Part shown: in pieces, positions 4,011 to 51,313 of the stretch
Layout: the number at the start of each line of letters is the position of its first letter
How positions within the stretch are numbered: the first letter of the stretch is position 1
Assembly (NCBI GenBank): GCA_964016885.1
Contig: OZ024741.1
Span: 336,040,001 to 336,104,000 of the forward strand
DNA from: Eledone cirrhosa
Lineage: Eukaryota
Direction of reading: 5' to 3'
DNA: 64,000 nucleotides
Notes under the pieces: generated by a model
Told to the model about the DNA's origin: nothing
Database searches by the model: none
Seen by the model: only the letters and a program-made list of their open reading frames with translations
Made by a program: the position numbers and the translations under genes

Positions 4011-4572
4011 AACTTACATATCCACACACACAAATATACAATAACCCATACTTACCTACGTAGACATATATACCTCCATGTTTAAGCAGGATCTTCTCTT
4101 GTACCGGAAATATGCATATTTTAGTAACATCATGCCAAATAACTGATATTCCTTGCAAAATGTGCACATGTTTAAGCATTACTTGATACACCAGAAGTAT
4201 GCATATTTTAGCATAATCATGCTAAACAACTTGTATTCCTGAGTGAATGTATACCCCCGCAGCATTATTATTAATTCTCATGTCATAAGTTTTATCCTTT
4301 TCCTCTTCTTTTCTTTCTTTCTATGTTGACTGGAAATGAAAATTGTTTCAGTTATAACCTTGTATACATACATACATGCACATATATATAATAAAACACA
4401 AGTGTCAAGTGAAAAACATTTGTGCTAGCTTTTGTGTAGAAAAAGGTATTTTGCTATTTTCCTTCCTACTACACACGCTTTCACAGTGTTAACGAGATTT
4501 TCTGTGGTCAAGCAACTGATATCTATATCTATGTACTTACCTTCCTATTTGTCTAGCTATCAATCTGTCCAT

Positions 4573-6734: not shown

Positions 6735-8602
6735 TCATCATCATCATCATCAACGTTTAACGTCCGTGTTCCACGCTTGCATGGGTTTGGACGGGGGTTT
6801 TCCCACTTGAGGCAAGAGTGATTATCTTGCTCGCATAGGACTGTCTGGCGGGTTTTCTACAGCTGGATGCCCTTCCTAACACCAACCACATTTACAGTGT
6901 GGGACTGGGAGGTTTTTACCGTGTTGTTTATACGGCCACATTACAGCGTGGACTGTGTGTTTTTTTGTCGTGACACCTACACGATCTCATTTGTTTCGGC
7001 CTCGATGGCGCGGCACCAACATAACTTTGAAAGGGGCGGTGTGGATAGGGTGGGGTGGTGGGACGGGGGTGTATTTTGTTAGAGATGCCTACTGACTGTA
7101 GTAGGTTTTACTTTGTATTTAGGTAAGGCGGGTCTTCTCTATTACTGAGTACCGCCACAGGTCTCGGTCCAGTGACATTGTCTTGGAGAGGTGTAAGTGT
7201 GTGAGGTCGGAATTTATCAGCTCGTCCCAGGTTTTTCTGGGTCTGCCTACTCCGTGGCTACCGTCTATCTTTATTGCCCTGCACTTTGTTATACAGCTAT
7301 CGTCTTTCATGCGCATCACATGACCATACCAACGTAGCCTTCTCTCGAGTAAACAACATCTGATCCCTCTTATTTCTAATTTTTTCCTTAGTTCGTTTAT
7401 GCTTTGCCGTTCACGTATATTACTATTACACATCCAGCGGAGCATGCAAGCTTCGTTCCTCTCTAGTCTGCGTATATCCTCTGCACACAATGCCCAGGTC
7501 TCACTGCCATGCAACATTGCTGTTCGTATGCAGGCATCATACAACCTGCCTTTCATTTTTAGGGAGAACCCTTTAGCGACTAATAGTGGTATAAGCTCTC
7601 TGAACTTTTTCCATCCAGTTCTGACTCTAGCTACTGTACTTTCAGAGCACCCTCCCCCACTGCTGATTTTGTCACACAGGTAACGGAAGCTGTCCACTAT
7701 TTCTATAGAACCCTCTGCGCAGTTGAAAGAGCTAGTATTTTGTGGGCACTTGCTGTTACTTATTGCACCAGAGCACCAGCCACATGTAAAATCTATGTTC
7801 TTAGTTAGCTTACCTGTGATCCCACTACATCTTTTATGCACCCATACTTTGCATTTGGGACACAAAATGGAGTTTCTCCCTACGCCTTTCCTACACACTG
7901 AGCATGGCCACTTCCCGGAAGGGACCGCCGCCTTATTTTCTTTCTTACAAACTAGAACTTTAGTCTTAGCCAGGTTAATTTTAAGGCCTTTTGATTCTAG
8001 GCCGTGCTTCCATGCTTGGAATTTCTTCTCTAGCTCGGCCATTGATTCAGCTATGAGTGTTAGGTCATCTGCGTATAGGAGTTCCCATGGGCAGCCGGTC
8101 TTGAACTCCTCTGTTATAGCCTGAAGGGCAATAATAGAACAGAGCCCTGATGGACACCAACTTTTACGCTAAACTCTTCACTATATTCGTTGTTAATTCT
8201 AACCTTGCTGACTGTTTCTTTATACATGGCTTGTATAGCTCTCACAAGCCATTCGTCAACACCTAGTTTTCTAAGAGCCCACCAGATAATGGAATGGGGG
8301 ACTCTGTTGAAGGTTTTCTCCAAGTCGACAAAAGCTAAGTATAGGGGTTTACTTTTAGCTAGGTACTTCTCCTGTAGTTGTCGTACAATGAAAAGAGCGT
8401 CTGTGGTACTTTTCCCTGACACAAACCCGAACTGCATTTCATCTAGATCAATTCTCTCTCTGATTAGTTGCGCTATTACTTTTTCCGTGACCTTCATGAC
8501 CTGGTCGATTAATTTAATGCCTCTATAGTTACTCCTATCTAGGGCATCTCCTTTACCCTTATAACAGTTAACGATGATACAGCTACGCCAGTCCTTCGGA
8601 AC
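6735..8602 (-). mobile_element. 5'-truncated RTE-clade LINE, family A (RT + PHD finger; frameshifted)
   Basis: ORFs 8114-8600 and 7119-8042 give KGKGDALDRSNYRGIKL, QFGF, FVDLEK, GVHQGSVL, LLYADD, then a C4HC3 finger and LHGSETW/LRWYGHV. A ~16-nt deletion near 8130 shifts the frame. 3' UTR and (ATG)n tail are present. Confidence 0.95.
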
Positions 8603-8922
8603 ATATATATATTTAATATATAATATGCATGTATATATATATATGCACATATATATATATATATTTAATATATAATATGCATGTATATATATATATGCAC
8701 ATATATATATATATATTTAATATATAATATGCATATATATATATATATTTAATATATAATATGCATATATATATATATATTTAATATATAATATGCATAT
8801 ATATATATTTAATATATAATATGCATATATATATATATTTAATATATAATATGCATATATATATATATTTAATATATAATATGCATATATATACATATTT
8901 AATATATAATGTGCATATATAT
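8603..8922. repeat. AT-rich ~30-bp minisatellite (atatatatatttaatatataatatgc) hosting RTE insertions
   Basis: Tandem units are visible here, and the same unit occurs at 6290-6346 and 6645-6734. Confidence 0.85.
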
Positions 8923-16391: not shown

Positions 16392-17148
16392 TATATTTCT
16401 GTGTAGTGTAAAATTACGCATATTGTCGCGTAGTGTAAAATTACATATATTCTGTGAAGTGTAAAATTATACATATTGCCATGTAGTGTAATATTACATA
16501 TATTGCTGTGTAGTGTAATATTACATATATTGCTGTGTAAAATGACACATATTGCTGTGTAGTATAAAGTTACATATATTGCTGTGCAGTGTAAAGTTAC
16601 ATATATTGTCGTGTAGTCTAAAATTACATATATTGCTGTGTAGTGTAACATTACACATATTAATGTGTAGTGTAATATTACATATATTGCTGTGTAGTGT
16701 AATATTGCATATATTGCTGTTTAGTGTAAAGTTACATGTATTGCTGTGTAGTGTAATATTGCATATATTGCTGTGTAGTGTAACATTACACATATTAATG
16801 TGTAGTGTAATATTACATATATTGCTGTGTAGTGTAATATTGCATATATTGCTGTTTAGTGTAAAGTTACATGTATTGCTGTGTAGTGTAATATTACATA
16901 TATTGCTGTGAGTGTAATATTGCATATATTGCTGTTTAGTGTAATATTGCATATATTGCTGTGTAGTGTAACATTACATATATTGCAGTGAAGTGTACAG
17001 TTACATGTATTGCTGTGTAGTGTAATATTACATATATTGCTGTGAAGTGTAATATTACATATATTGCCGTGTAGTGTAATATTACATATATTGCCGTGTA
17101 GTGTAATATTACATATATTGCTGTGTAGTGTAATATTACATATATTGC
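16392..17148. repeat. 27-bp minisatellite (tgtgtagtgtaatattacatatattgc)n; resumes at 19437-19515
   Basis: About 28 tandem units, each containing the palindrome tgtaatattaca. No unique spacers. Confidence 0.95.
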
Positions 17149-19436
17149 GGTTTAGAGACCAAGAGGGAAGCTAGGCGACAAGTATACTTAGCTAGGAGGG
17201 AAGCAGAGGATAGAAAATTCAAGCATGTTTTACAATGTGAGGACCAGAAGCAGGAGGTATTCAAGATTGCAAGGCAGTGTGTCAGAGATAGTTATGATGT
17301 CATTGGAGAGAAGTGTATCCGGAATGATAAAGGTGAGCTTGCCCTCACAAGTGCTGAGAAGAAAGATGCATGGAAGAGTCATTATGATAGATTACTAAAT
17401 GAGGAGAATGCATGGGAAGAAGAGACCCTACCCCAAGTAGACCCTATAGAGGGACCAGCAGTACAAGTCAGCGGCAGCGTAGTAAGTAAGGCAATCAGAG
17501 ATATGAAGATGGGGAAGGCAACCGGTCCATCGGGTATAGCTGCCGAGATGCTGAAGGCATCTGGGTCTGTAGGTCACACTATAACCACACGTATTGTTAA
17601 CCAGGTAATAGTAGAAGGTGTCATACCAAAAGATTGGTGCAGTAGCATCATTGTCAACTGCTACAAAGGTAAAGGTGATGCACTAGATAGAGGAAACTAT
17701 AGAGGTATAAAGCTGATGGACTAGGTCATGAAAGTAACAGAAAGAGTTATAACACAGCTGATTAGGGACCGGGTGAATATAGACGAGATGCAATTTGGGT
17801 TTGTACCAGGAAGAGGCACCACTGATGCCCTCTTCCTTGTGAGGCAATTACAGGAAAAGTACCTAGCTAAAAGTAAGCCACTCTACTTGGCATTTGTCGA
17901 CCTTGAGAAAGCCTTTGACAGAGTTCCACGTGCTGTAATCTGGTGGGCTCTTAGAAAACTAGGAGTAGATGAATGGCTTGTGAAAGTGGTACAGGCCATG
18001 TATAGGGGAGCAGTCAGCAAAGTTAGGATTAGCAATGAGTATAGCGAGGAATTTAGCGTACAGGTTGGGGTCCACCAGGGCTCTGTTCTTAGCCCTCTCC
18101 TGTTCATCATAGTCCTGCAGGCAATAACAGAGGAATTTAAGACCGGATGCCCATGGGAACTCCTGTATGCTGATGACCTCGCACTCATAGCTGAATCTAT
18201 GATAGAACTAGAGAATAAATTCCAAACCTGGAAGCAGGGACTAGAGAGAAAGGGTCTCAAAGTCAACATGACAAAGACTAAGGTCCCTGTAAGTAGACGA
18301 GAAAACAGAACCCAGATCCCCTCAGGGAAATGGCCTTGCTCAGTATGTAGGAAAGGTGTAGGTAGGAACTCCATTCTCTGCCCCAAATGCAAACAATGGG
18401 TACACAAGAGATGTAGCGGGATCTCAGGAAGCTTAATTAAGAATGTAGGATTCACATGCAGCAGCTGTGCTGAAACAGCAAGCAGCAAACAGCCACAGGA
18501 AACAAGTACCACCAATCTCTGGGAGGGCCCTGTAGAAACAGTAGACAGCTTCTGCTACCTAGGTGACCGAATTAGCAACGGAGGTGGGTGTTCAGAAAGT
18601 ACAATAACTAGGGTAAGAACGGGATGGAAGAAGTTTAGGGAACTACTACCACTGCTAGCTGCAAAAGGCTTCTCCCTCAGAATGAAAGGCAGACTGTATG
18701 ATGCGTGTATCCGAACAGCGATGTTGCATGGTAGTGAGACCTGGGCGCTGAAGGTGGAAGACTTACGTAGATTAGAGAGAAACGAAGCCTGCATGCTCCG
18801 ATGGATGTGTAACAGTAATATACGTGAACGACAAAGCATAAATGAATTGAGAGAGAGACTGAGCATAAGAGGAATCAAATGCTGTGTGCAGGAGAGGTGG
18901 TTGCGCTGGTATGGACATGTGATGCGTATGAAGGATGACAGCTGCATAAAAAGGTGCAGAGCACTAGAAGTTGATGGAAACCGCGGAGTGGGGAGACCCA
19001 AGATGACCTGGGATGAGGTGATAAAAGCCGACCTTACCCAATTACACCTCTCAAAGACAATGACACACGACCGTGACTTCTGGCGTCACGCAGTAATACA
19101 GAGTACCCGACCTCCCATGGGTACATGCTGAAGCATATAAACAATATGCCCCCACACCCCCCACCGCAAGGTGGTCGTGGAGGTGCCACGGCAAAAAAGC
19201 ACCCAGCCCACACCGTAAAGTGGACGTGTAGGCGCCACGAAAAAGCACCCAGCACTCACTGTAAATGAGGTTGGTGTTAGGAAGGGCATCCAGCTGTAGA
19301 AATCAAGCCAGATCAGTTCCTGTATGAGCAAGGCATGGTCAGCCGACCAGACACTGCACACAACAGGACAACCCGTTTAACCCATGCTAGCGTGGAAGAA
19401 CGGACGTAAAACGGTGATGATGATGATGATGATGAT
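17149..19436 (+). mobile_element. 5'-truncated RTE-clade LINE, family B (RT + PHD finger)
   Basis: The frame is open from ~17150 to 19131 except for a single TAG at 17722-17724 (DQVM -> D*VM). RT motifs FVDLEKAFD, GVHQGSVLSP and YADD; C4HC3 finger; 3' UTR and (ATG)n tail. Confidence 0.97.
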
Positions 19437-24127: not shown

Positions 24128-26172
24128 CGGGTCATCCAGATCATATCTAGATAGAGTATTTTGTAGGGAAATAGATAGGTCTATCATAGGCTGTCTATAA
24201 TTCAAGATAGTCAGCTACACGGACCACAAATTCCTGATCTGTGTGGTTGACTTAGATAGGCTTCATAGACAGGGACCCGGGTACTGGAAACTAAATGCGT
24301 CATTAACAGCGCGCAAAGCTTACTGAGACCAGATTAGCGAATTAGTTAAGCGGGCATTGACAGGGGCCATCGTCAACAGCAAATGGTGATTTGCCCTGAA
24401 AAGAGCGATTAGAATAGAATCCATTAGGTTTAGTAAAGCGCTAGTAACAGAGAAAAATAGAGCAGAAGGAAATCTAGTTGAGAAATTAGATGAGGCGCTT
24501 AATAAAGGCATCGTGACCAACATGCTTGCGGTGAAATTAGCTCTCGACCAATTTTTCAATGCTAAGCACGAAGGCTGCATTGTCAGAGCTAGGGTGCGTG
24601 CGTTCAATGGGCCCTGGTGGCGGAGGCACGTCGTGACAACAAAGCCACGATCCAGTCTTTGGCGAACCACGATGGGCACATGATACTCGATCCCAGGCAG
24701 ATGTGTGCGGCTTTTCAGCAGCACTTTGCTCAGCTGTTCGGGGGACAATGGCGAGCCGCATCACGGAATGGACATCACTGCCTATCTCGACGGACTGCCA
24801 CGGCTCTCGGCCACTGAGGCGGAGTGTTGCGAAAGGCCGATAACAGCTGCTGAAGTACGGGAGGCAATGAGTGGCTGAAAGGTTGAGCGGAGGTGGCGAA
24901 TGCGTACATCACGTCCGTCATCTACTACCGCCTGACCATCGTGCCTTGTCCTAAACCTCACCTGACTGCTCTTTCGCTTTTTGTGGAAGGGACGTGCTCT
25001 GATGGTCAGGCAGTCCATCTGCTGTCAACACCCGCTACGCGGAGAGCTGGGCATACCGTGGCTGATGATGCGCAGACATGCACTCAGGCTACGGCATCTC
25101 CACCTCTTCCTTGACGGTGATCAGGTGTGGTCACCCTTTGCTAGACACATGTTTTCCCAGCTTGTTGCCTTAGCGGAGCTGCAGTCCTGGGTCAAGCGAA
25201 GATGGAGAGGAAGCGCTTGGAGACTAGAATGTCTTCAGGCGCTTACAGCCCTCGACCAGTCGAGCAATACAATCGCTGGAAACTCCACCTTGGCGTTCTA
25301 TAGAGGATTAGTGGAAGGAAAGAGCAACAACGTCCTTGGGGAGACTCTAGGCATCGAAGAAAACCAACTAGCCAATCTCTTCGGGAGTACTTTCGGGTCG
25401 AGGCCCATGGACAACTTCCAGAAATCCCTGGCCTGGCAGTGCTACCGAGGAGCCTTGCCAGTTCAGGATAAACTCTACAGGCATGGAAGTGTCGTCAGCC
25501 AAGCCTGTCCGAGATGCACACAGGACGAAGAAACTGTCCTGCACGCACTCGTCCAGTGTCCAAGCATTGCTAATTTGTGGGTTTATGCCGAACACCCACT
25601 GTCACGTATAGAAGGGATCCGCCTATCAGCTGAGTCCATCGTAAAGATTGCCCCACCACCTTCTTTTAGCCGAGAAGGGCAGGTAGTTTTTATCTGCCTG
25701 GTGGCCATGGTAAAAGAGATTGTATGGTGGACACGTCTGAAAGGGTTGAGGATGGGTACTTTCTTCTTCGGTGACGCCCTCATTAACTTTTTCAGGTTTC
25801 GCCTGAAGAGGAAAATCAGGGTGGAGAGGAAAGTGCTGACTTCCAGCCAGTTTGTTGAAAGGTGGGTGAGCGAGGCAAGAATGGCCCATGTGAATGGGTC
25901 TACCCTGAGCATGTGCCTGTAGCATTGTAGGAGGAAAACTGGAAGAGGGCATTTGCCCTAGCGGTCAGGGTAACCATGGCTTTTCTCGTGGGCTTTCTCC
26001 ACGAGAAGCCCTCGGAGGTCTCCCCCTATTGAACATTTTTCATTGTTTCCTTTTGTCACACTCTGTTTTTGTTTTTTTACACGCAGAAATGCCCATTTGT
26101 ATTGTCCTGTGTTGTCCTGTGTTGTCCTTAATGTTATACTTTGTGTCAACCCTTGTGGTTAATAAAGAAAGC
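24128..26172 (+). mobile_element. L1/Tx1-clade LINE, 5'-truncated with most of the RT deleted
   Basis: APE end SRSYLDRVF...TDHK...GPGYWKLNASL. An abrupt jump near 24880 skips the RT core. C-terminal zf-RVT CPRC...ETVLHALVQC; 3' AATAAA; (ATT)n on both flanks. Confidence 0.88.
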
Positions 26173-45128: not shown

Positions 45129-45360
45129 CATGTGTGTGTCTGTGTGTGTGTGTGTGTGTGTTGTCTTGAAGGAAGAGATTTCCATGAATTTTTCTGAACA
45201 CTATTTTTGCTGCATGACATGGGGTATAAAGATGTTTTTTTAAAACACTCCTTAAAAGTATTTTGGAAAGAACATATCTTTTCTCAGTATAAACACACTT
45301 TGTTTTCTTTCTATCAGTTGCAGACTTTATGAACCATCACATGAGGCCCTCTCTTTAAAA

Positions 45361-47781
45361 ATGATCAACCACTGTTACTTAGCAACAGTTTTCACTAGCG
45401 ATATGTTGATGCCGTTGATTTTTCTCATGATCTTTATAACATCTTGTCTCTGTGTTGATGTGACTTACCATGTTGAAGAAGGTCAAAGATCGAACACTTA
45501 TATTGGAGATATCAACATCGATACACATTTTGTAGAAACATTCCCAGTGAAAGGACGTATAAGTTTCAGTCAAATAAAGCACAATTCCGACGTTCCAAAG
45601 TTATTTAATGTCACCAAGAGAGGAAAGCTTATCACTACACAAACTCTAGACGCAGAGACACTTTGTAGCTATAATAAAGAATGTTTCAAAATGCTTGATG
45701 TTGCTGTACAGAGAGAAAAATTTTTCATTAAAATATTAGAAATCAAAATAATTATAGAAGACATCAATGACCACCAACCGGAATTTCCCAACAAACTAAT
45801 TCAGCTTCAATTCTCTGAAGGGGATCGAAAAGGAATGACTAAATCAATTCCTAATGCTATTGACAACGATGTTGGTTTATTGAACTCTCAGATCAACTAC
45901 GAATTAATAAAAAATCATGATGACCCATTTTCACTTGCCCTTTCCAAAAGAGTTGATGGTTCTTATTCCCTTGGAATCACTTTAGAAAATAAGTTAGATA
46001 GAGAGATACAAGAGACATATATGTTAAAAGTAATTGCTAAAGATGGAGGCTTTCCACAGAAGCAAGGCGTATTACAAGTTGAAATATCTGTAGGGGATAT
46101 AAATGATAATTCACCAGAATTCTCACAAAATATTTATAATGTAACCATTAACAACCGACATCAACTAGATACACCAATTGTAAGGATTGTTGCAACAGAC
46201 ATGGATTTTGGTAAAAACAGCAAGGTTTTATATTACTTTAGTTCTAAAACTTCGGAAATGGTTAAAACTTACTTTAGATTAAATGAAGTAACAGGAGAAA
46301 TTTTTCTTAATGAACAATATAGTCAGGAAAAGAGAAAAAGATTTAAACTATTTATTGAAGCTAGGGATGAAGGTAGCCCACCTTTGAGTTCAATTGTTGT
46401 TATACTTGTAAATATTATCAACCAACAAAACAATTCACCAACTATTGATATGAATTTCTTCTCAGAGTCATCAGGAAGTACTGCTATGATTTCAGAGGAT
46501 ATCCAAGTTGGCAACTTTATAGCTTATCTCAAAATTATTGATAATGACATTGGAGAAAATGGTGAAATCAGCTGTAATCTTGACAGTGATAAATTTCAAC
46601 TGCAGAGTCGAGGAATAAAGAAATATAAAGTAGTTATAAAAAATCGTGTTGACAGAGAAAGCGAGAAATATATAAATTTCACTATAACTTGTCAAGACAA
46701 AGGATCCCCTCCACTGAAAACAGAAAGAAAGTTCTCCATTCAAGTGATAGATGTCAATGATGTACAACCACAATTCACAAAAGATACTTTTAAATTTCTA
46801 ACTTATGAGAATGAAAAGCCAAATTTTCCTGTTGGCTTTGTTAATGCTACTGACCCTGATTTGGGGCCTGGAGGTCATCTAACTTATTCGATATTCAAAA
46901 GCAATAGACATTTTCTTCCTTTTGAAATATCTAATTTTGGATTTATCTCAACAACAAAATTGTTGGACCGTGAACAACAAGAAATTTATGAGTTCAAAGT
47001 TTTAGTGAAAGACAATGGGGTACCGTCACTTAATGACACAGCAAAGGTTATTGTGGAAATTATGGATGAAAATGATAATGCCCCTTATTTCATCTTTCCC
47101 AGTGTTAACCCATTCAGTCTAGATATTCACTATCATCCACAGAGTAAAAGTGACATTACAACATTAAGAGCTTCAGATCGAGACAGCCGGCAAAATGCAT
47201 TTCTTAAATATGAACTTCGAGGGGGTAATGTTAAATACTTATTTGCCATTAACCCTTACACTGGAGTATTGTCTTTCTCCCGACCTGTTCATCAAAATGA
47301 TGCAGGGTCATACGATCTTTATTTGGCTGTCACAGACAGTGGCACACCAAGCCTATCAGCAACAATGACACTTTCTTTAACTCTAACTGTAAGTAATACA
47401 ACAGCTAAATTATTCACTGCTATTGATACACAGTCTGATAACAAAATACATATTAATTTATTCATCATCATCATAGTTGCAGCAGTAGCAGTGTCTGTTG
47501 TCCTTGTTGTGTCTATAACTATTTGTATTGTTAAAGGCAGTAACAATAAAAACTCTAAACTCAGATGTGGGACAAACATTTCCTACCGTAGTTCAGATGA
47601 TAACCAACAAACTGATTTAGGGGAACATATGTCATTTCAATATGATGTCCCTGTGACTACACTATCTGGGGAAGAAAGTAAAATGCAGCAGCTTGTGAGT
47701 GCAAGGAGGCAAATAAACCCTAACAGAGAAAGTTTGCAAACAGGAATTCCTTGGCCAGCTACCACTGAAGAAACATCACAA
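45361..47781 (+). CDS. Protocadherin large exon: signal peptide, 6 cadherin (EC) repeats, TM, start of cytoplasmic tail
   Basis: EC1 has the Pcdh C-x5-C motif (LCSYNKEC). Linkers DINDHQP, DINDNSP, NQQNNSP, DVNDVQP and DENDNAP; LDRE/xDxD motifs; TM LFIIIIVAAVAVSVVLVVSITICIV. Phase-0 donor CAA|GTGAGT at 47781/47782, so the ORF-track tail to 47895 is probably intron read-through. The start could be M1 (45361) or M15 (45403). Acceptors at 45317 and 45323. Confidence 0.96.
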
Positions 47782-50544
47782 GTGAGTACAAACTTTGGCA
47801 TTATTTTACTTATCAAAATACGGTGCTTTTTTGTCATTGTTCTTATTGTCATCGTTGTCACCATTGTTATTATTGTCATTGTCATCATTGTTTAGTTCTA
47901 GGTTAGCTCTGATCAAGCAATATTTCCAGTCTTTCAAAGATGTGTAGGACTGTATCATTTATTGTTTTCTTACTCCCATTTTTTAACTTTAGTGTGTGTT
48001 ATGGTGAGGATTTAGCTACTATTTCTAACATGAGACAACTATGTAGAAGGTCCCTCATTGCCTTTGATTTATTTACTACAAAAAAAAATATAATCTGAAA
48101 AACCAGCATGCGATTTAACTATTGGATCTACAAAAGGTACATTGTATATTTATGTAAAATGGAGTTGTGACTTATCTGTATGTGTGACACACACAACACA
48201 CACACACATTGAATATACTCGTGTAGAAGTTGCACTATTTTTCACAAAAATATGACATGTAAAGCCAGCATGCAACTTATCTATTGAACCTACAAATTGT
48301 CAGTTCAAAATATATAGTACATTGTAAACATTGTTGGTAATATTCAGATGAGATTCATTAATTAAGATATGAATATATACAGTACTTGAAATAAATATTT
48401 CAGATGATAGATTTAGTCAGGTCACTCACATCTGACCCATTCTGTGGTAGGAGGTGTAACGATTCATACTAAGGGTAGAATAACTGAAAAAGATGGATTT
48501 TAAAACTAGAATTTAGCAATACTTAGATGTATGTATGACACATATTTCTGTTCTAGCAAAAAAACCATTACAAAACAAAAAATCTTATTCATTTGTTAAT
48601 GTTTTTAAATTATAACACATTATTTTTGCAAATATTTTCTTTATGATACTCCATGTATGTCTTTATTCCATGTTCTTACATATTACATGTTAGATTTTGA
48701 ATTTGAATAGTAAATTATAATTTCAATGGCGAATGAAGATTTAATATTCAAACATTTTTTTTAAATACTCATGACACACTTTGTAAAAAAAAAATATATT
48801 TAAACATACTTTGTACAAAAAAAGAGATGTTTGTAAAGGAGCTTTATATATTTAGCCTCTAAATATAAATAATTTAAACTATGGAACGTTATTTGATGCT
48901 GAATCCTTTATTCAATAAATAGAGCATATTTGTGAAGACTAGCAACATAGTAAAGTGGGTGAGAGGTGGGATAACAGTTGCTTATGTGTGCAGGTATGAA
49001 GGGGTTATATAAAATATTCTCTGACCTGTCATATAAGTTAATTAAGGTGAGTCCTGCCAAAAGTGTCTGTAATAATGTCAATCACTACAAATAATTAAGA
49101 AAATTAGGTAAAGTACATCTAGAATCAGAAAAAAAGGGCCAAAACGGATCCCTTTTATGAGACCAGTGTTACAATATATGACCCTATTCTAGGATCTTAT
49201 ATGTAGGAGAAAAATCAACAAGGAAAAACAACACTGGAAAACTATACTGTACAATGATGATATAATAATGTATTTTAAGGTCCTTATCTCTGTCAAAGCA
49301 AGGAGAATAATCTTGTATGGTTGGCTCAATCATACTCATTGTGGGGTGGGGAGTGAGGGGAGTGGGTCTTTTTTGAGGCCCTGTTTTATGGTTGGATGCT
49401 TTTCCCGATACCAACCTTTTTAATTGCTTCTTACAACTCACAAGAGTGTGGTGTACCTATTCTAAAACAGATACACACCATATCATGTTGATGGTTGAAA
49501 TATTTCAGGGCCTTACAGAAATTAGTAAATTAAAATTTTAGTAATAGACGCCTCTGTTCACATATTTCTGTCTCTAAGAGTACTGTACTTAATTTCCTTA
49601 ACTATTATCTATAGTGATCAACTGTTGTTACAGTTATTTTCTGCACTTGGGACTCCCACACTTTCAAACTGTTTGTTAATTTGTATTTTTTTATATATTT
49701 GTTTTAAAACTTTCTAAAATGGAGAAATTCTCCAGAGCGATCCAAACTAAATTCCCCTGCCCTGCCTCACATCTCCACCCCGCCTCACTGACTTTGTTTA
49801 CATGCATGATTTCAATGCTATAAGAAAATGATAATTTGTCTCTTTTTTCCTTTTCTTTTTCCACCCAAATCATTTATCTTGTTCACAATCCAGAAAACTC
49901 CTCTTAACAAGCTTCCCATTTGAAATTTTTTCAAAGATATCAGTATTATCTTAACATACTAGGTGTTCAACAGAAGAATCAAGTTTGTTACTCACTTGTA
50001 TGTAGTAGATATTTCATTTTACTTGTTTATAAGAATTCCAAGATACACTTGATAAAAGATAAAAATCTGTTATTGAGTCAGAGATTTTAGGTTCTCTAAT
50101 GTGAAGCTGTCAGTTATCAACGACACTTCTAAGAAGTTATCAGTTCACTGCTGTCTTATAACTGAAATTGTTAGAACCAAATTTCAAAACCAAATTATGA
50201 TAAAAATGAATCTCTAGAGTTACAGGAGTGTGATTCCAGATAGTATCAAAACAGCAGATGTCTAGATGTGATCAAAAAACCAGTTGTCTAGATGTGTTAT
50301 GTGTGACCATATACTGATTATAGAAGCTTCAAGTTAAAACTACAGTATTGCTTTTGAGATATTTCTGCATATAGTTGTATTCCTTTAAAGTTTATCACAG
50401 AATACTTTTTAAGTATGTTTTTTAAACATACTGGCAACTCTGTGATATTTTCACAGAGGAAAATAGAGAATAATAGTTTTTTTCCATTTCGTTTCATTGC
50501 AAAAATATATTTTTCTTTCATTACAAAAATATATTTTTCTTTCA

Positions 50545-50952
50545 CTGAGCCAATCCCACTCTCTGAGCGACAGTAGCTATAACCCGAAAAGAAGAAAAGA
50601 TCAACATCATCGGTAACTACTGAGTCGCAGGTTTTATATCGGAGTTATCCCAGTTTCCTGAGTTGCCAATTCCTAGAAGAATGACCTGAAAAAGGATAGG
50701 GGTCCTTCACTCCCAGTAGTTTAACCGCATGGTACATGTGTATGTACATTTTTACACACTTTCGGATGGCCGTTGACTCTTATGAGTTCTTCCGCCCTTT
50801 GTCAGGTTTTGTTTTTTGTCCTGCAGGGTGTACAAAATCACCCTCATCACCAAGTAAACTTGGTGGGGTTGCCGGTTTAGTCGCCGACAACCCGACCATG
50901 TGACGGATTGTACTGGGTTACATGTTACCAGTAGCACTGAAGAGTGACCCAA
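50545..50952 (-). mobile_element. Structured GC-rich segment, possibly the 5' UTR and decayed APE start of a non-LTR retrotransposon
   Basis: Six hairpins plus a pseudoknot on the minus strand. Downstream fragments LATQET and DLFFFSG...SGIG resemble an APE N-terminus. Confidence 0.45.
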
Positions 50953-50958
50953 CACACG

Positions 50959-50994
<36 letters not shown>

Positions 50995-50995
<1 letters not shown>

Positions 50996-51313
50996 CATCA
51001 TTTTACGTTCATTTTTCCCTGCTTGCAAGGGTGGGATGGGAACTGATTCTGGCTTGATTTCTACAGCTGGATGCCCTTCCTAACACCAACCTCATTTACA
51101 GTGAGTGCTGGGTGCTTTTTTGCCGTGGCACCTCCACGACCACTTTGCAGTGGAATGATATGGACCCCAGTCCCTATCATCTCATTTCTACAGCTGAGTA
51201 ACCTGGAACAATGTGAAATAAAGTGTCTTGCTCAAGGAAACAACACATCACCCGGTCTGAGAATTGAACTCACAAGCTTTCGATTGCAAGGCCAATGCTC
51301 TAACCACTAACCC
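50995..51313 (-). mobile_element. tRNA-head/CORE-like SINE with RTE-B' 3' tail
   Basis: Reverse-complement copy of 51661-51990. Confidence 0.9.

Follow-up and report, generated by a model that had tools for sequence, protein, structure and literature searches.

An xrRNA-like module of flavivirus subclass 1a layout at the start of RTE-type retrotransposons in Eledone cirrhosa

According to the available text of a 2021 review, xrRNAs have been characterised in viruses only, and the review asks whether eukaryotic genomes hold them (PMC8374639). In the subclass 1a form, the accessible part of one paper gives the limits of the three-way junction as 5 bp for P1, 4-8 bp for P3 and 1-9 bp for P2 (PMC7527734); excerpts of two others place the Xrn1 stop point two positions upstream of PK1 (PMC13161572) and indicate that the fold can be unwound from its 3' side (PMC12397905). 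That form further has a lone conserved C separating P2 from P3, a PK1 of no more than 2 bp with G-C as its second pair, and a PK2 of 2-7 bp that joins L3 to the strand beyond P1 and has a hairpin after it. Among non-LTR retrotransposons, RTE elements are reported, in the portions of the papers at hand, to lack a promoter of their own, to be transcribed inside host RNAs and to have their 5' ends freed by ribozymes (PMC6765202, PMC8501958), while template use by R2 is described as limited by 5' stability (PMC11331408). Here we describe a locus in which features of these two systems meet.

The window, i.e., the whole 64,000-nt stretch of DNA analysed, is AT-rich and microsatellite-rich and belongs to a host genome of 3.0 Gb. 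The original prediction placed a structured RNA, of a kind found in non-LTR retrotransposon 5' UTRs, on the minus strand at 50760..50952. This was borne out, and the stretch forms the 5' head of a retrotransposon of RTE type; the predicted interval fell on the right element, but it begins one base inside it and misses the three-way junction at 50951-50904. The features of the locus are as follows.

50543..50953, minus strand: non-autonomous bipartite RTE-type element, family A (element positions 1-411 of ~540; 3' tail lost)
50953..50956, minus strand: 5' limit of the element, with G 50953 as the first base that copies share and the junction 0-3 nt upstream of it; an exonuclease is predicted to halt here
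50894..50956, minus strand: xrRNA-like module with flavivirus subclass 1a layout (descriptor match; also the one R1 model match within the window, at 75.9 bits)
50904..50951, minus strand: three-way junction, from per-family pair tables
50951-50947/50908-50904, minus strand: P1, 5 bp
50946-50943/50938-50935, minus strand: P2 of the three-way junction
50934, minus strand: junction C between P2 and P3
50933-50928/50916-50911, minus strand: P3, with loop L3 at 50927-50917
U50952 with A50932-U50912, minus strand: positions of the U.A-U triple, from pair tables
50954-50953/50910-50909, minus strand: PK1, from pair tables
50897..50924, minus strand: PK2 pseudoknot, L3 50924-50920 with 50901-50897, 4-6 bp by family
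50766..50893, minus strand: domain 2, with five hairpins, a purine-rich linker, CAA and a possible closing helix
50893-50866, 50865-50848, 50844-50825, 50823-50803 and 50787-50776, minus strand: domain 2 hairpins, kept in 7 family majorities
50543..50735, minus strand: RTE 5' UTR body, by identity to a LINE 5' UTR, including the CTAGGA...ACTC motif region (~50676-50630)
50957..50996, no strand assigned: flanking (TA)n/(TATG)n microsatellite, preferred as insertion target

Elsewhere in the window, an 879-aa open frame at 45256-47895 (plus strand), containing five cadherin domains as well as a hydrophobic segment, resembles the single long exon of a protocadherin, and the element lies 2.7 kb downstream of it on the opposite strand. 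Other LINE families have left fragments, with RT-like frames, at 17134-19131 (plus), 7119-8716 (minus) and 24966-25922 (plus).

Over its 411 nt, the window copy shows 94.4% identity to a complete copy of family A. A genome search for family A returned 3366 candidates, 40 of which were scored and showed 94-100% identity; boundaries drawn from 30 loci gave an element of 490-630 nt that starts sharply at GTCRGGT, has (TATG)n after its 3' tail and shows target-site duplications. Family A shares 91% identity with the 5' UTR of a LINE with an intact ORF over positions 223-490, and 86% with a LINE 3' end over its last 51 nt. To judge from these alignments, family A belongs with the bipartite non-autonomous elements that the available part of PMC5786205 describes, sharing with the RTESINE, Bov-A type the combination of a 5' UTR with the 3' end of a partner LINE, a microsatellite tail and target-site duplications. 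The CTAGGA...ACTC motif is likewise found in the RTE 5' UTR alignments in the portion of that paper's supplement at hand, although the accessible text describes no xrRNA-like head for this type.

Families B, C, D, E and G have the head in common, at 75-92% identity, and contigs from sequencing runs aligned to the family A copy belonged to the same families only. A pattern scan of metagenomes gave two loci carrying the head, which are two assemblies (L160 and L161) of one insertion in a metagenome contig; this foreign copy matches the present genome at 76-81% at best. Its head (L160:2090-2200, L161:1-44) lies directly 3' of a tRNA-like SINE fragment with a B-box-like word, and since this join is seen at a single locus, fusion and insertion are indistinguishable. 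Families A, B and C insert into one another's (TATG)n tails, forming head-to-tail chains (L006, L021, L162, L164, L176), and several copies show a duplicated GTCAG at the 5' junction (L077, L272, L390, L398). Tandem arrays with a 57-60 bp unit consist of most of the family G xrRNA module (L378-L380, G000:C18:20246511-20246848; G000:C12:7006952-7007691).

The first ~62 nt of the element carry every hallmark of the flavivirus subclass 1a xrRNA that can be tested from sequence. As in RF01415, the order is G-U-P1 (5 bp)-P2-C-P3-L3-P3'-C(A/U)-P1'-1 to 3 nt-PK2-hairpin, with a CAGG/CCUG P1, a C-G first pair in P2 and a variable P2; as in several flavivirus control loci, the P3 hairpin spans 23 nt, and tandem copies occur in one family. 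All pairs of P1 (5/5) and P3 (6/6) form in 7/7 family majorities, and P2 has 4-5 bp with two two-sided changes. The single C between P2 and P3 is invariant in 10/10 aligned heads, and also in family G and in module 2 of family E. The U, A and U of the predicted triple contact are likewise invariant in 10/10 heads, and the second PK1 pair is G-C in all ten, while the first is U-A in 8/10 and absent from family G. PK2, with hairpin H4 after it, comprises 4-6 bp with 97.5% of cells paired and one two-sided change; family G extends it to 6 bp (6/6), and the foreign copy has one two-sided change and one mismatch in PK2 and another mismatch in PK1.

Thermodynamic prediction was less uniform. Two of the P1 pairs in the window copy are G-U, and misfolding is predicted for this copy, its minimum free energy structure being without the three-way junction, which was the predicted minimum in only 3/7 sense copies; the 63-nt module was no more stable than its shuffles (z -1.1 to +1.2), pseudoknots lying outside the folding model. 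The head also differs from flavivirus xrRNAs in that it stands at the 5' end of a retrotransposon in a host genome rather than in a viral 3' UTR, has a U-A junction pair where flaviviruses mostly have C-G, scores below the Rfam cut-off and is followed by an unrelated downstream domain. A genome search with the flavivirus-type C-G junction-pair pattern found two copies, both of this element, which are explicable as double mutants among thousands. Family E carries, at +218, a second, tandem xrRNA-like module with a long P2 (L355-L377, L384), which is intact in older copies and has a 9-nt deletion of P3' and P1' in the larger group, as if lost once redundant.

In the family A copy, nucleotides 1-72 matched Rfam RF01415 (Flavivirus_SLIV) with 19.5 bits (E 0.69 over all 4227 families). 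Genome-wide, RF01415 gave three matches at E<=10 among 64 scored candidates, all of them element starts and the best of thousands of copies. Since the best score was 29.6 bits against a cut-off of 54.5, which no copy passes, we do not assign the head to that Rfam family; matches below the cut-off also occurred in 7/14 control genomes. A structure descriptor of subclass 1a, written from the available text of PMC7527734 and PMC8374639, matched the sense strand of 6/6 family majorities and of the window copy and never the antisense strand, and matched 0-1 of 1500 shuffles of each. Family G and family E module 2 were also matched, and in 1.58 Mb of collected sequence the descriptor gave 96 matches, 86 in heads and 10 elsewhere.

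A core pattern retrieved 25 loci from a viral collection, 17 of them from records of 10.5-11.1 kb with the match near the 3' end; 16 of these 17 flavivirus-size control records encode Flavi_NS5, and the descriptor together with PK2 matched at 12/17. Parsed side by side, heads and viral elements were alike in order and lengths. Model R1, built from 10 heads alone, found 14/17 of the flavivirus-size 3' UTRs at E<=0.05 (best 1.4e-7, E-values being rough and the loci pre-selected). Since the fetching pattern shares words with the heads, this reciprocal test is inflated at the fetched sites; R1 also found second viral xrRNA copies absent from the pattern's listing, and on five phage-like pattern matches it gave E>=1.5 or nothing. 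Three small viral contigs, not of flavivirus size, hold subclass 1a-like motifs (L224:1498-1555; L225:1147-1217 and 1494-1551; L241:1-46) in which the P3 junction pair is U-A, as in the retrotransposon heads; the L224 motif lies behind a Viral_coat S-domain ORF and the two L225 copies lie between ORFs.

Conservation within the head was uneven. Over families A-E and the foreign copy, the core was invariant at 28/30 columns, compared with 0/10 in the P2 interior, 0/3 in the linker between P1 and PK2 and 96/131 in the rest of the head; an invariant core with a variable P2 is the pattern known for subclass 1a xrRNAs. Over 10 heads, 96.7% of cells pair, a level reached by 0/500 shuffles, in a test that kinship of the sequences can inflate. 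Two-sided changes were seen in four pairs (one in P1, two in P2, one in PK2); P3 and most of P1 never vary, so no covariation can come from those pairs. These data also bear on the idea that the head is a captured piece of viral 3' UTR (a template-switched subgenomic RNA) or a convergent look-alike, devoid of nuclease resistance. The nearness of the core sequence to flavivirus xrRNAs and the motifs in the three small contigs speak for such an origin, but the core is conserved above both the rest of the head (p 0.017) and P2 plus linker (p 3e-9), and domain 2 does not resemble the viral loci retrieved (best E 0.83), so that we regard a functionless viral remnant as very improbable. A viral origin and a function of the head are compatible.

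Domain 2, at 75-92% identity in the 7 family majorities, keeps its hairpins with two-sided changes, and its loop sequence GACTAAAC is nearly invariant. Its pattern matched once in GTDB genomes and three times in viral contigs, as expected by chance only. Cap-independent translation and binding of a protein (RT) are candidate roles that this domain may serve. Much of the original prediction concerned this region: the strands it named are present where it had placed them on the minus strand, as are its four hairpins, the ACTC/GAGT pairing and the CAA, and two-sided changes in the inner part of H4, H5, H7 and ACTC/GAGT support the local hairpins. On either strand, the 211-nt stretch folded better than its shuffles (z -3.37 for the minus and -2.97 for the plus strand).

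The two crossing long-range helices that it proposed fared differently. Both exist in the window copy, but they do not exceed chance: an adjacent crossing pair of long-range helices of >=6 and >=7 bp was held by 48/150 base shuffles, and across the seven family majorities neither helix showed the two-sided changes by which covariation among homologs was to be recognised. TCCGTC/GGCGGA pairs 6/6 in the window copy only and 4/6-5/6 in family majorities; ATGGTCG/CGGCCAT pairs 7/7 in six families of this genome and, in the foreign copy, 3/7 as aligned or 5/7 in the best register found by eye. In the xrRNA-like fold, the 5' strand of the former serves as the 3' strand of P1, and the first three bases of the latter as the PK2 strand. 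Since the 7-bp helix overlaps PK2 by three bases, either a 4-bp version coexists with the xrRNA-like fold or the two folds alternate; as an alternative fold, the proposed helices could break P1 and PK2.

The same prediction had likened the element to HDV-like ribozymes lacking the HDV core, or to another ribozyme fold, and a head that cuts itself at the first base of the element deserves consideration. According to the parts of the sources available, RTE elements carry 5' HDV-like and twister ribozymes (PMC6765202, PMC8501958), the first base of the element is G, and ATGGTCG/CGGCCAT is complete in six families. The position is identical to that of the known 5' ribozymes of non-LTR elements (HDV-like in R2, L1Tc and RTE; twister variants in Perere-3), and the likely job would be the same, namely freeing unit-length RNA from a co-transcript and shielding its 5' end (PMC6765202, PMC8501958 and PMC11331408, each in its accessible portion). 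However, Rfam scans of the region, the full family A copy and the foreign copy gave no ribozyme family at E<=10, so that this part of the prediction is not supported, and the crossing helices are at chance level. A permissive HDV core descriptor (P3/L3 with the nested P1.1 pseudoknot, P1' directly after P3' and a catalytic C in J4/2) found its control record but 0/7 sense heads, which confirms the predicted absence of the HDV core; it was negative on the whole element and the window context, with one antisense match in the foreign copy. Twister, hammerhead, hatchet, pistol and twister-sister gave no Rfam match at E<=10, and the heads contain no CUGANGA or twister L4 word. We therefore consider a self-cleaving head highly unlikely. 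An xrRNA-like head differs from those ribozymes in having no catalytic core, and its end would be made by an exonuclease stop that leaves a 5' phosphate.

Copies of the element commonly begin at the head's first base. Among family C copies chosen by their body, 13/29 start at the first G (query locus removed), as do 11/20 of family B (four head-selected copies and four locus-edge rows removed); the remaining copies of both are 5' truncated at scattered points, and none of the body-chosen B and C copies shares sequence upstream of the first G. Family G conservation reaches background level 2-3 nt upstream of the first G. Candidate target-site duplications mostly end at the same distance; those outside pure microsatellite come from 8/143 intact heads, with offsets of -2 to 8, and the family G offsets are 2, 2, 5 and 7. 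The element junctions, 0-3 nt upstream of the PK1 G, thus correspond to the place where Xrn1 would halt. Of 24 family E loci chosen by module 2, 17 start at module 1, four at 112-134, two exactly at the module 2 G and one at 245.

Promoter-bearing LINEs and SINEs also typically show a modal 5' end at the first base. A sharp start would therefore equally be expected if the head were an internal promoter setting the 5' end, the xrRNA-like fold merely stabilising decapped RNA or binding an element protein, and the near-invariance of the domain 2 loop would suit such a reading. Yet the 7 majorities hold no Pol III A or B box, conservation tracks both the pairing of the RNA and the tertiary positions of subclass 1a, G-U pairs occurring on the sense strand, and two family E copies begin at module 2; a promoter thus appears unlikely, though less so than a ribozyme.

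The head also starts full-length LINEs, in which head, endonuclease, RT and tail span ~4 kb in 4/7 fetched loci, with the head at 180-300 and the tail at 4150-4300. Their ORF, the inspection of which had been proposed with the original prediction, encodes an AP endonuclease (PF03372) and then an RT (PF00078) in a single-ORF layout, with frames broken in these copies, and is followed by a short 3' UTR and a microsatellite tail, which is the RTE-clade layout; the RTE-clade label would rest on this architecture and on the 5' UTR motifs quoted in the available part of PMC5786205. The endonucleases of head-bearing LINEs are only 33% identical, whereas their heads are 86% identical. A protein search gave 1385 relatives. 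The first partner LINE found has the 5' UTR body in common and a different 5' end, and a search for a partner that started from locus L032 ended at a chimeric family lacking the head, in which unrelated sequence is joined to the LINE 3' half (L100-L129; 194 candidates).

The youngest LINE family lacks the head and has >100 long open frames among the 150 matches listed, many of them ~1200 aa (L130-L159). Host repeat sequence takes the place of its 5' end, which is ragged: in 28 loci it lies between 49 and >=1500 nt upstream of the match to the endonuclease. Since this family moves without the head, the head is not essential; the ragged starts fit a role of the head in end definition, yet also show that it is dispensable.

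Taken together, we think it likely that the head is a subclass 1a-like xrRNA, probably a ring, that stalls a host exonuclease and so defines and protects the 5' end of the element RNA. The element would be transcribed by read-through within a host transcript, and a host 5'-3' exonuclease would trim this co-transcript until the xrRNA-like ring halts the enzyme at the first base. Uncapped, unit-length element RNA would then stay protected until reverse-transcribed, so that trimming to the knot would replace a ribozyme or promoter. Reverse transcription requires unwinding from the 3' side, from which the xrRNA fold allows it. We further lean, with somewhat less assurance, toward the view that RTE elements of this and at least one other animal use exonuclease stalling, swap the module among distant LINEs and share its descent with RNA viruses.

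Within the literature available to us, including parts of PMC10520033 and PMC12222951, we found no account of an xrRNA in any cellular RNA, retrotransposons included. The head thus appears to place a known fold in a host of a new kind and to be, in all likelihood, a new route to retrotransposon RNA maturation. If it resists Xrn1, it would be the first cellular example of the flavivirus fold and a third way for non-LTR retrotransposons to make a 5' end, and it would provide a direct handle on the origin of the flavivirus element; the genome would then carry thousands of potential nuclease roadblocks across its introns.
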